Shown: one piece after another, positions 5,269 to 8,892 of the stretch
Position numbering within the stretch: the stretch's first letter is position 1
Layout: each line of letters begins with the position of its first letter
NCBI RefSeq assembly: GCF_006345805.1
Contig: NC_042998.1
Span: 64,542,001-64,606,000, forward strand
Direction: 5' to 3'
Source of the DNA: Octopus sinensis
Lineage: Eukaryota
DNA length: 64,000 nucleotides
Translations under genes and position numbers: made by a program
The notes under the pieces: model-generated
Databases searched by the model: none
Seen by the model: the letters and a program-made list of their open reading frames with translations, nothing else
Told to the model about the DNA's origin: nothing

Positions 5269-5912
5269 ATACTATAATCATAAATGATTATATATTGAAT
5301 TTTGAGATACCAGAAGGCACCAACTCAACTCAGTATCAGAGCGAGCTAGAATCCGCAACTGGTATCACCGAATTCAATTTGTGAATGAAACGATTGTGTC
5401 AACAGCCCCTTCCCACCCGCGTGTAGCCAAAACAAGATGCTGTGGTCATCTACTGAGATAAAATATGGTTATCCGTAATAATGAAGGGTGAAATTAATTA
5501 ATTTGGAAAAATTATCAATTACACCAAGTAGTCTTCGGCATGTAAAAGCCTCATTCGAGGAAAATTTAAGTAATACTAAGCAATAAGGGTTTAGCAACGA
5601 GTTGCCTTACCACATACCGAATTTAGAAATAGCAGTCAAAGGGTTATAGCTATTTCTTCTACTAAAAAGGGAGATCTCAGTAAAAACAGCATTTGGAAGG
5701 CAGACACAAACAGGTAAGAGAGAATGAATTGACTGCAATCTATCATACATTTTTTTAGTTATCCACGGACGTACGTTTCGAAATCAAGTTTTAAGGAAAG
5801 CATAAGAATTAAATATTAAATATTAAATAATTCTATCTTACCGAAACTTCTTTTCTCTTGGTGCCTTCTGGTATCTCAAAATTCAATATATAATCATTTA
5901 TGATTATAGTAT

Positions 5913-6019
5913 TCTACGCTGAAGAGAAAAGAAGTTTCGGTAAGATAGAATTATTTAATATTTAATATTTAATTCTTATGCTTTCCTTAAAACTTGATTT
6001 CGAAACGTACGTCCGTGGA
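5913..6019 (+). ncRNA. Type I hammerhead ribozyme with extended stem II
   Basis: tctacg-CTGAAGA-gaaa..aagttt..agaatta..taattct..aaactt..tttc-GAAAC-gtac-GTC-cgtgga; 6-bp stem I; palindromic ACGTACGT stem III. Confidence 0.82.
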
Positions 6020-6512
6020 TAACTAAAAAAATGTATGATAGATTGCAGTCAATTCATTCTCTCTTACCTGTTTGTGTCTGCCTTCCAAATGCTGTTTTTA
6101 CTGAGATCTCCCTTTTTAGTAGAAGAAATAGCTATAACCCTTTGACTGCTATTTCTAAATTCGGTATGTGGTAAGGCAACTCGTTGCTAAACCCTTATTG
6201 CTTAGTATTACTTAAATTTTCCTCGAATGAGGCTTTTACATGCCGAAGACTACTTGGTGTAATTGATAATTTTTCCAAATTAATTAATTTCACCCTTCAT
6301 TATTACGGATAACCATATTTTATCTCAGTAGATGACCACAGCATCTTGTTTTGGCTACACGCGGGTGGGAAGGGGCTGTTGACACAATCGTTTCATTCAC
6401 AAATTGAATTCGGTGATACCAGTTGCGGATTCTAGCTCGCTCTGATACTGAGTTGAGTTGGTGCCTTCTGGTATCTCAAAATTCAATATATAATCATTTA
6501 TGATTATAGTAT

Positions 6513-6619
6513 TCTACGCTGAAGAGAAAAGAAGTTTCGGTAAGATAGAATTATTTAATATTTAATATTTAATTCTTATGCTTTCCTTAAAACTTGATTT
6601 CGAAACGTACGTCCGTGGA
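6513..6619 (+). ncRNA. Type I hammerhead ribozyme (second tandem copy)
   Basis: Same sequence as 5913-6019, 600 nt downstream. Confidence 0.82.
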
Positions 6620-8892
6620 TAACTAAAAAAATGTATGATAGATTGCAGTCATTCATTCTCTCTTACCTGTTTGTGTCTGCCTTCCAAATGCTGTTTTTAC
6701 TGAGATCTCCCTTTTTAGTAGAAGAAATAGCTATAACCCTTTGACTGCTATTTCTAAATTCGGTATGTGGTAAGGCAACTCGTTGCTAAACCCTTATTGC
6801 TTAGTATATATATATATATATATATTCATTATTAACGATACATCATTGCAAGTTCATTTCGTAGCAAATTAATTTGACCACTATAATTTTCTTCAGCCAC
6901 GGCTGTTTAGTCCATGTTAAGGTGTCATGGTACGATGCTATCTGCTCTGCGTGGTTTACTACATTGTTCCATATCCTTTAATTAGAGGAAAGAGCGAATA
7001 CTATTCTAGGATTTGCCCTTTCCTCTAGTTTTTTCCTCCCTATAAATATTTTAAAATTTTATGTTTCTCCGCTCGCTTAAAGTTTGAAAAATCCATCTGT
7101 CATAACGTTAAAAACATGCGTCTCAGCATCTCCTACAAGCTGCGAATATATTCCCTACTTTACTCCTTATATGTTTTTCAAAATGGTGTTGTCACACCTT
7201 TCTCTCCTTCCAGAGAGTCATGCATCACAAACTGTATTTGCTTTTTTTTCTGGTCTCAGTTTCAGACGGCCATCATAACTATCATTACTCAAACAGGAAA
7301 TTCATTCAAATTACGAGTTTCACTTGTCCGGAAGACTCTCATTAGTGACCCCAAATATTTGGTCAAACCATGTAAACGTACGCGGTAGAACATATTTTTG
7401 ATATTTATGTAGAAAAACCGGTATATTCTGTGCAAGGGCAGACCAGAAACAGTCACATCAACACTCCGTAACTGCTCGCAACACCCCCAACGTGTTACAA
7501 ACATTAACCACTTCCAAATGCAGGGCCAATAACATGAATAAAAATAAGCCTCTACTAATAACGCACAAAAATCACCATAGAAAAGGTCTACTTACCAACA
7601 GCAAAGTCAGGAACAAATATAAGAAATCTCAGGCATAATGCCAACATTTTTAGAACGATTGAATGCGATAGAAACCAAGTGGGGGTGGATCATAAATCTT
7701 CTCACATATGAGATACAATTGAGGGAACATGAAAGAGGTGAACTGTTTCACGTAAAATAAATGTGATTGATAACTAAACCTAGATTTTAAGCACAGTGAA
7801 CATGAAGATGAATAAAGTTAAAGTGTGCTAAAAGTCAGATGAATACTACCGACTGGACATACAATTATGAATGTAAATCTACTTAGCGTTATGGGTTCCC
7901 GATAAAATAATGTACCAGTGAAGTAGTTGGATGGATGGTATCAATTAACATTCCCTCCAAATCTGTGGTCTTACACTTAACTAGAATCAGTTATTCTTCA
8001 AACGCCCTCAGTCGTTCATCGCCCTCTGCCTGTTGAGTGACGAAACTCTCCGGCTAAAACACACGAAATGAATGTTCTGACTTTGCCTACTTGTGAAGTT
8101 GTGTCAACCACCTATTGTCGCATGTAGAATGAAGGTGGTATTGGTTGAGTCCATTCTTAGGATTACATCCAGCATTTGCCTTCAACGTGCGGGGAAGCCC
8201 TTATTCGCTGTCTAGTAATTGTGGTGAAGACTAAGTGGTTGGAAGAGGCTGAAGAGATCGAGTACAAAGACGGACGGCTTTTGACACCTAAAAAAAAAAG
8301 AAGAACAAAAGAGAAAAGTTTGGATGCATTGATCTTCTCTAAATATACCTATGTATATTGCAGAATATGAGTGGAATAGTCTGTGTGTCCCTAGTTCTTT
8401 GAGTGACATAGGATCACTGGAATTCCTTGACTGGTCTTATTTCGGTGATCGTTAGTATCGGAAAGACCGTATCATACTTGTTCACATATACTATCTATAT
8501 TTTAATATCAACTCCCCTTCATAGCACCCTGTCCTTACTATGAGATCTCACTGTTCACGTTTCGAAGCTCCGTTTTAAGATTTTCTTCCTTGATTTTTTT
8601 CAAGGAAAGCACGATTATTTTCACATTTTAGTTGGTTGTAATTTACTGAATCCATCATTGTATTTTCGAATGTTCTCTTAATTACCCCGCATAAGGACAT
8701 GTGATTTATTATTACGCCTTCCCTTGTATAGCCATATGTTTTCAACCTAATCTACATAATTTATTACTGTTCTATCATAGACTTCCCTACACAATGGGAG
8801 GAGATGGAAACAAATCTGCAAACAGCAAATGAGCCGACTAGATGTTTGTATTCTGGATTACACCCAACAATAATTTTCATTTTTTTTTAAAG

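Follow-up and report, generated by a model that had tools for sequence, protein, structure and literature searches.

We analyzed a stretch of 64,000 nucleotides of the Octopus sinensis genome (NCBI RefSeq assembly GCF_006345805.1, contig NC_042998.1, positions 64,542,001 to 64,606,000 of the forward strand; referred to below as the window), in which an initial annotation had noticed a 600-nt retrozyme-like unit between two tandem hammerhead ribozyme motifs. Self-comparison of the window revealed a two-armed insertion spanning positions 4870-6807, in which inverted arms of 1.65 and 1.58 units lie inside a (TA)n tract. The 3′ end of the left arm (4870-5859) falls at a position of the unit that we call site B, and the 3′ end of the right arm at another one, site A; each of them is joined to (TA)n, and the inner junction of the right arm overlaps the left arm by 2 nt. 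An A end on one arm combined with a B end on the other is the rule in the family to which this insertion belongs. The initial annotation had set the extent of the element at 5858-6807, which holds for the right arm on the plus strand; the inverted left arm on the minus strand, with a third intact hammerhead, had been overlooked. Unit numbering starts at window position 6014 (unit position 1), and loci were mapped on a concatemer of the unit.

Hammerhead motifs and the 600-nt unit

A motif scan located type I hammerhead cores with C3 at positions 5919 and 6519 and GUC triplets ending at 6013 and 6613, which places the predicted cut sites 600 nt apart. The two motifs are identical and have the full core, as annotated. 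Hammerhead 1 consists of stem I (5913-5918/6014-6019), the CUGAAGA strand, a 76-nt stem II insert (5926-6001), GAAA and the palindromic stem III, ACGTACGT. These parts had been described correctly, with the addition that one of the 6 bp of stem I is a G-U pair. The segment 5858-6208 recurs at 6458-6807 with one 1-nt gap.

In a monomer, stem III is predicted to form only an A-U and a C-G pair closing a GUAC loop (+2.4 kcal/mol), while two copies of the palindrome would form an 8-bp intermolecular duplex (−11.2 kcal/mol). Since stem III is weak in the monomer and stable as an intermolecular duplex, cleavage is expected to be dimeric, and the folding energies thus support what the initial annotation had deduced from the palindrome. 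Published newt and axolotl hammerheads with a weak stem III likewise cleave as dimers (Cervera and de la Pena 2020, PMC7229834, and a 2014 paper).

The hammerhead core is kept in 197 of 208 family hammerheads of the fetched loci, and a 30-nt word from the core has 1,286 exact matches genome-wide, compared to 0 for the reversed control. Stems I-III carry compensatory changes in related families. Judged from these sequence data, the motif is not a chance occurrence, and copy number and covariation both agree with the annotated ribozyme. The hammerhead region by itself folds no better than shuffled sequences (z = −0.85 and −0.96 in two tests); for stem II alone z is −2.39. When the monomer is folded as a circle, the minimum free energy is −157.9 versus −120.2 ± 7.4 for 40 shuffles (z = −5.1), and in this predicted fold stems I and II re-form, with stem I pairing across the junction. 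Rfam models did not match the hammerhead either at the gathering score or at E ≤ 10, as had been anticipated for standard models. Sub-threshold Rfam models of miRNAs and sRNAs (E ≤ 10) fell on the inverted-repeat hairpin and were rejected. A promoter and terminator scan, whose models are bacterial, was uninformative, with 1 site versus 3.4 in shuffles.

The unit is free of coding frames in both linear and circular reading, in line with the earlier report of a unit without an open reading frame (ORF): each of the six concatemer frames has 8-22 stops per turn, which excludes an endless ORF around the circle, and the longest ATG ORF is 47 aa. The GC content is 33-36% in 2-kb bins over the element (below 45%). 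Tandem complete motifs and the lack of coding capacity support the retrozyme-type monomer proposed at the outset. The A7 run that follows the cut site has grown, to as many as ~34 A, in each of the five units of L059 that cover it, and partly in other loci (L066 and L033).

Table 1. Parts of the two-armed insertion, its target tract and its partial second copy in the window
Feature	Position	Strand	Basis
(TA)n target tract, left side, after a (CA)n run	4805..4869		sequence
Left inverted arm, 990 nt = 1.65 units, unit 509 to 298	4870..5859	-	100% identical to unit
Intact type I hammerhead of left arm, C3 at 5262, predicted cut after 5168	5162..5268	-	motif scan
5′-truncated hammerhead at inner end of left arm, without 5′ strand of stem I and CUG	5762..5859	-	arm begins at unit 509
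Right arm, 950 nt = 1.58 units, unit 445 to 195	5858..6807	+	concatemer mapping
Hammerhead 1, type I, predicted cut after 6013	5913..6019	+	motif scan, folding
600-nt monomer, predicted cut to predicted cut, non-coding	6014..6613	+	motif scan, ORF check, folding
Conserved structured domain, unit ~105-298, containing both inferred priming sites	6118..6311	+	sister-family alignment, folding
Site A, unit 191-204, mode 195; most frequent arm 3′ end	6204..6217	+	junction mapping; predicted single-stranded AU-rich loop
Site B, unit 290-305, mode 298; second arm 3′ end, ~100 nt downstream of A	6303..6318	+	junction mapping
G-rich tract; long-arm 5′ ends cluster at unit 336-380	6351..6375	+	14 stops vs 4.4 expected, 64 arms
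Hammerhead 2, type I, identical to hammerhead 1, predicted cut after 6613	6513..6619	+	motif scan
(TA)n target tract, right side	6808..6825		sequence
Partial second copy, 3′-terminal 604 nt of right arm	38208..38811	-	part of 7.3-kb inverted duplication

Paired 3′ ends in a dispersed family

A search of the 2.72-Gb genome gave at least 251 family matches from 39 of 530 candidates scored. The family consists of young, dispersed tandem repeats of a non-coding 600-nt unit, and each unit carries a type I hammerhead motif. Its arms range from 0.05 to 11.6 units; their 5′ ends are variable, and their 3′ ends are fixed at A (mostly unit position 195) or B (mostly 298), where they join (TA)n via ~3 nt of microhomology. 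Exact junctions number 411 for A-TA and 282 for B-TA genome-wide, with 0 for the reversed controls. Target-site duplications are unreadable inside (TA)n; a flank-to-flank comparison gave matches in 7 of 39 loci, none of them a direct duplication at the junctions.

Three sets of loci were used. Set 1 comprises the 39 best-scoring loci, 38 of which were fetched. Since this set favors long arrays, two further sets were picked by junction. Set 2 contains 39 loci picked by A junctions, i.e., 35 of the 37 listed on contig C1 and the first four on contig C2 (the two omitted C1 junctions were already in set 1, and both are single-armed). Set 3 contains 18 of the 26 B junctions on C1, those without an exact A junction, the other 8 being present in the A set. 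Arms combine A with B in 21 of 24 two-armed loci of set 1, in 20 of 20 of set 2 and in 15 of 16 of set 3, where one arm enters an N gap. Altogether, 56 of 60 two-armed insertions are A+B, one is A+A, none is B+B and three are ambiguous. Single-armed insertions make up 19 of 39 A-picked loci versus 2 of 26 B-picked loci (C1). Since A arms are often alone and B arms rarely so, A looks like the site of first priming and B like that of an optional second one. In two single-armed loci (L039 and L049) the flanks resemble, by eye, imperfect mutual reverse complements over 20-50 nt, on which masked BLAST was silent.

The 5′ ends of paired arms are coupled as well. In 17 of 35 junction-picked pairs they are no more than 10 nt apart, compared to a permutation mean of 3.6, and this holds for 10 of 26 pairs (mean 1.7) when the hot spot at 90-120 is left out; neither count was reached in any of 20,000 permutations. 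The shared stop varies from locus to locus (unit positions 1, 8, 52, 63, 73, 101, 131 and 452). Coinciding stops that differ between loci point to one template molecule for both arms. The lengths of the two arms correlate among junction-picked pairs (Spearman 0.82, n = 20), whereas set 1 shows no such correlation (−0.12). Short arms prevail among those picked by junction: of 60 arms, 13 are longer than 600 nt and 7 longer than 1,200 nt.

Sister families were reached via diverged matches in the flanks of fetched loci. A young 559-nt family (L190-L208, L124 and L154; 1,277 candidates) has a 26-nt stem II, a GUU cut triplet and the same two-armed (TA)n architecture, and among 17 stretches examined 7 of 9 resolved two-armed loci pair position 197 with 292. 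An older family (L169-L188; 2,174 candidates) is ~77% identical to the 600-nt unit, with ~95% identity among copies. Further relatives include a 568-nt unit (L103, 1174-1933) and variants in L047 (194-383), L129 (2408-2613) and L161 (2616-2843). In one locus (L031), a young array has entered the TA tract of an older copy.

The four aligned families keep the hammerhead core, with stem I as UCUACG/CGUGGA, CCUACG/CGUAGG or UGAG/CUCA. Their stem II inserts measure 76-83, 60, ~30 and 26 nt; since insert length varies in this way, the long stem II appears to be a labile AT-rich expansion and not the exceptional trait for which it had first been taken. Apart from the hammerhead, the older and distant families share a 200-nt domain and the same end sites. 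In unit 100-298 the identity between families is 62-89%, against ~30% in the remainder of the two distant ones, and both priming sites lie at homologous places. The predicted domain helices pair unit positions 111-119/135-143, 147-156/225-234 and 243-258/265-281. RNAalifold applied to 7 sequences returned 42 pairs, 6 of them with double changes; the sequences are related, and these events are not independent.

In public data, 20 of 22 runs, under five organism labels and none recorded as RNA, contain the stretch or a part of it. The four runs analyzed further consist of contigs, whose status as RNA is a guess; their depth says nothing on expression, nor does the joint of 6457 to 5858 on circles, since it arises from tandem DNA too. 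One contig of run X15 skips 91 nt (from window position 5922 to 6014), ending exactly at the predicted cut, and is possibly a short-stem relative.

Other repeats are present in the window. The partial copy at 38208-38811 is not an independent insertion and belongs to an inverted duplication of 7.3 kb (6203-13518 versus 38811-31496, 99.8% identical). One end of this duplication adjoins a gap of 100 N (13519-13618), and the other lies inside the retrozyme, beside a 22-nt local duplication at 38799-38842; it is either an assembly artefact or a real rearrangement. LINE fragments are found at 10687-12502 (plus strand), mirrored at 32512-34327 (minus strand), and at 20444-21238 (plus strand), with RVT_1 at E = 7e-09 and zf-RVT under the cut-off.

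Relation to Penelope-like elements and to known retrozymes

The insertions resemble those of Penelope-like elements (PLEs), which encode a reverse transcriptase (RT) and a GIY-YIG endonuclease: we see 5′ truncation, an inverted 5′-truncated copy, a microsatellite target and two alternative internal 3′ ends downstream of the hammerhead. The element also has the features by which non-LTR retrozymes are recognized, i.e., at least two consecutive complete type I hammerheads, tandem dimers to multimers, no coding sequence, low GC, a fitting size and autonomous PLEs in the same genome. By sequence, then, it appears to work like a PLE substrate and qualifies as a non-LTR retrozyme on the points open to test. 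A tblastn search with three PLE proteins found no array running into a PLE ORF and gave matches in only 3 of 136 loci, where the PLE pieces are neighbors or hosts at a shared TA tract; no array flanks an RT plus GIY-YIG ORF. Thus, no examined copy is the pseudo-long terminal repeat (pLTR) of a PLE ORF, an identity that the initial annotation had named as fatal to its proposal, and this leads to the assignment as a non-LTR retrozyme. The type I topology, the whole-unit tandems and the (TA)n junctions argue against a plant LTR retrozyme (type III hammerhead in LTRs, primer-binding site and polypurine tract, 4-bp target-site duplication), and hundreds of dispersed loci with fixed 3′ ends against a classical satellite, which has few long arrays with arbitrary ends and spreads by recombination.

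Candidate partners were sought among the PLEs of the genome. Searches with a GIY-YIG fragment from the window (150 of 1,434 candidates scored) and with an RT fragment (150 of 3,219) led to an old broken family. A search with Pfam PF01541 (150 of 5,029 candidates scored) led to two young Neptune-like PLE families, N1 and N2. Neptune-like PLEs with open frames of 781 and 775 aa, ending at (TA)n, are present, two fetched copies of each being 98% (781-aa family) and 95% (775-aa family) identical; the clade was assigned from the CxxxxCxxC linker (Craig 2021, PMC8557442). N1 (L229, L230 and L146) has an optional tail of ~30 nt and a hammerhead-like motif in which U replaces C3 in each of the 11 copies inspected; N2 (L227 and L228) has a hammerhead with the palindromic stem III AGUACU. 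The 3′ regions of N1 and N2 do not match the unit, and the conserved domain is absent from both. Two GIY-YIG matches (L148 and L149) look like what we take to be host SLX1-type genes and not PLEs; their sequences differ, and one is on a small contig. Neptune pieces flanking L045 were considered as partners and belong to other families. In one N1 copy (L229), a 370-aa open frame overlaps the start of the RT frame. The window itself contains a degraded PLE with RT and GIY-YIG remnants at 39039-40000 (plus strand; an old family with 1,434 candidates) and a Neptune-like RT fragment at 49356-50019 (minus strand), which shares 28% identity with the protein of the young N1 family.

Metazoan non-LTR retrozymes (coral, Mytilus, axolotl Rtz331/353 and newt satellite 2; PMC7229834) are likewise non-coding and low in GC, with a type I hammerhead in each tandem unit. 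The weak palindromic helix III of the octopus element matches the axolotl and newt type, which cleaves as a dimer. Further common points are PLEs in the genome and a predicted circle that pairs with itself and leaves the hammerhead able to fold. These metazoan retrozymes differ in size (170-400 nt versus 600 nt here, with a stem II insert of 76-83 nt) and in that their circles have been demonstrated, those of the octopus element being predicted. Dispersed (TA)n insertions, fixed paired ends and inverted arms are features of the octopus element, for which we found no description in the accessible text of that paper. The 600-nt monomer, at first regarded as unusually long, falls within the consensus sizes of 51-972 bp (mean 650) of ray-finned fish families (Li et al. 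2026, bioRxiv 10.64898/2026.07.22.740005), and retrozyme monomers are elsewhere given as 150 to >1000 nt (PMC7229834). Vertebrate non-LTR retrozymes are defined by Li et al. in the same way, by at least two units with complete hammerheads, and PLE dependence is proposed for them too. A 2020 review (PMC7761336) describes, in its accessible part, retrozyme repeats as lacking a conserved motif that points to a partner, in contrast to the 200-nt domain conserved across the octopus families.

Among autonomous elements, the closest parallel is the Poseidon PLE of Anolis (PAc). The purified protein, a predicted dimer, cuts and extends both strands of AT-rich DNA and uses two internal RNA start sites downstream of the hammerhead, whose spacing equals the genomic tail (Frangieh 2024, PMC11167929). 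Two RT starts downstream of a hammerhead, an AT-rich target and involvement of both strands are thus common to PAc and the octopus element; PAc is autonomous, whereas the octopus element is non-coding and has its two sites on opposite arms. Neptune and Naiad PLEs (PMC8557442) show 5′ truncation, tandems, an inverted 5′-truncated copy at the 5′ end, a one-sided tail, a (TA)n bias and no discernible target-site duplication, all as here. They differ from the octopus element, which has no RT-endonuclease ORF and whole-unit multimers instead of partial tandems, and Naiads are without hammerheads. The origin of tandem and inverted PLE structures and of one-sided tails was called still undefined (Craig 2021). 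In the openly accessible literature, i.e., outside subscription journals, Repbase/Dfam and supplements, we found no description of paired A/B ends, coupled stops, the conserved domain or inverted two-armed retrozyme insertions; published supplements may list related families.

Priming, template and competing explanations

We consider it highly probable that the insertions result from priming of two DNA ends at two sites. We rejected a fold-back origin, in which one arm would be copied from its partner, since either arm can hold sequence that the other lacks (e.g., in L078). In LINE-1 twin priming, two DNA ends are primed and produce head-to-head inverted cDNA with a microhomology joint; the site of the second priming lies upstream and varies, and the two arms derive from separate stretches of the RNA. 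Here, in contrast, neither priming site varies, the arms are copies of the same sequence and either may be longer than one unit. The classical form of that mechanism was rejected since the 5′ ends of A arms do not lie at site B.

On balance, the element is likely a non-LTR retrozyme inserted by a PLE RT/endonuclease that cuts (TA)n and primes two DNA ends at two sites of one RNA, this RNA likely being a circle in the case of long arrays. Copying of circles by PLE RT has been proposed before (Cervera and de la Pena 2020; the 2014 paper; the 2020 review). The steps would be as follows. An array with at least two hammerheads would be transcribed, and the hammerheads would cut as a dimer via the palindromic stem III, freeing a 600-nt monomer. 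A host ligase would close the monomer, and the weak stem III would keep the monomeric circle from re-cutting. The PLE protein, probably a dimer, would bind the conserved 105-298 domain and cut both (TA)n strands. One DNA end would prime at A and, in about half of the events, the other end at B, each by ~3 nt of TA microhomology. Synthesis would either stop early, with the trailing cDNA terminating at the same point as the leading one, or roll for up to ~12 turns. Finally, the two cDNA ends would be joined with 0-18 nt of overlap, or a single cDNA would be joined to the other (TA)n end.

For the long arrays, a circular template is the likeliest reading. The most serious competitor, which we regard as unlikely, keeps the same two-site PLE priming on a template that is always a linear, uncleaved multimeric transcript, so that the hammerhead would be a passenger or cut rarely and no circle would be involved. 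Purified Anolis PLE used unprocessed RNA, and hammerhead mutants left insertion unaffected (Frangieh 2024); octopus arms read through the predicted cut site seamlessly, few of them have an end exactly there, and run-off from linear RNA fits the coincidence of 5′ ends in short insertions. With a linear template, however, a daughter array could only be shorter than its donor, yet arms of 10-12 units occur among the very young ones. A new variant would, moreover, sit in one unit at an inherited index. Instead, 25 arrays of at least 3 near-full units display 15 majority haplotypes fixed array-wide (for example, all 10 units of L054 have 110G and all 11 of L056 have 266C), with a within-array mismatch of 0-0.62% and an average of 3.4 sites differing between arrays; of the 8 informative arrays, 7 have their rarer alleles on both arms. 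Intact cores with compensatory stems kept in four families also argue against an idle hammerhead.

A satellite model, in which short copies of 1-2 units are retrotransposed and long arrays grow later by unequal crossover or slippage, is improbable. It accounts for the short length of most junction-picked arms, and local growth, which Li et al. (2026) invoke for arrays, also gives homogeneous arrays with private alleles. The octopus ends suggest instead that arrays arise in the course of insertion: in many cases the two inverted arms each hold several units, with lengths correlated as described above for the junction-picked set and not for set 1. Partial variants are scattered and not in blocks (3 adjacent pairs versus 3.5 expected), weakly so with only 6 variants, and the older sister family has no longer arrays in the 20 loci fetched.

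It is very improbable that the unit is the pLTR of an autonomous PLE and the arrays its truncated remnants. The ends do carry the PLE signature of 5′ truncation, inverted copy, tail and microsatellite target (Craig 2021), and Xenopus retrozymes are homologous to pLTRs, with 21 PLE matches among 57 families (Li et al. 2026). Against this, units here stand head to tail without an ORF between them, none of the 136 loci runs into a PLE ORF, and a profile of the conserved domain found no pLTR in 64 PLE loci, a small part of the 5,029 GIY-YIG candidates. That the inverted arms are chimeras of long reads or assembly and the arrays inflated by assembly is scarcely credible: the window does contain a 99.8% inverted duplication ending at an N gap, and arrays hold many homopolymer indels, but a fold-back would give the same end on both arms and not A plus B, each with its own (TA)n flank, and the junctions recur in contigs of four public runs from four studies (A-TA in X1, X10 and X15; B-TA in X2 and X15).

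Several observations weigh against PLE-driven insertion from a circle. Transcription, cleavage and circles are predicted steps. The coupling of 5′ ends is absent from the long arrays of set 1 (within 25 nt in 1 of 21), and in L067 the arms differ at one site (3/3 versus 0/3), which points to two template molecules there. Assembly polishing may homogenize tandem units or flip alleles. A genome-wide pattern search for 5′ ends exactly at the predicted cut gave 8 matches (control 0), 7 being single-G deletions and 1 real, to which one two-armed locus is added; this is no enrichment and about what we expect by chance, which we estimate at 1-2. Loci with a 5′ end at unit position 1 are L221 (both arms), L231 and, in the 559-nt family, L154. 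Stops at unit positions 1-20 number 10 versus 3.2 expected, an excess that lies partly in an A-run and counts coupled arms twice. The tail of ~95-110 nt, or the A-B spacing of ~100 nt, exceeds the 30-40 nt of PAc and other PLEs, and the domain profile found no PLE carrying the domain among the loci given above. In vitro, Anolis PLE showed no strand difference in start site and used uncleaved RNA (Frangieh 2024), and 8 of 9 Xenopus retrozyme dimers tested did not cleave (Li et al. 2026).

A more specific version can be put forward tentatively, as somewhat less probable than its opposite: the arrays may be direct fossils left when a PLE RT dimer copied a single hammerhead circle, working from the two ends of a (TA)n break with one subunit fixed at A and the other at B. 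If true, this would explain the one-sided PLE tail, the inverted pLTR and the retrozyme multimers together, and the 200-nt structured RNA would be the part by which any circle that contains it recruits the enzyme. The conserved domain is accordingly a candidate minimal cis element for writing RNA into (TA)n DNA.

As a retrozyme, the octopus element is ordinary; its value as data on mechanism lies in the pairing rule of the ends, in the coupling of the stops and in the conserved domain. PLE mobilization of retrozymes via circles was earlier proposed from co-occurrence and pLTR homology, to which the octopus family adds a PLE-specific two-site signature and multimers of a single haplotype. The A-with-B rule and the coinciding 5′ ends restrict PLE models to two priming events, each at its assigned site and usually on the same RNA molecule, and with the conserved domain they make the mechanism linking PLEs and retrozymes directly testable.

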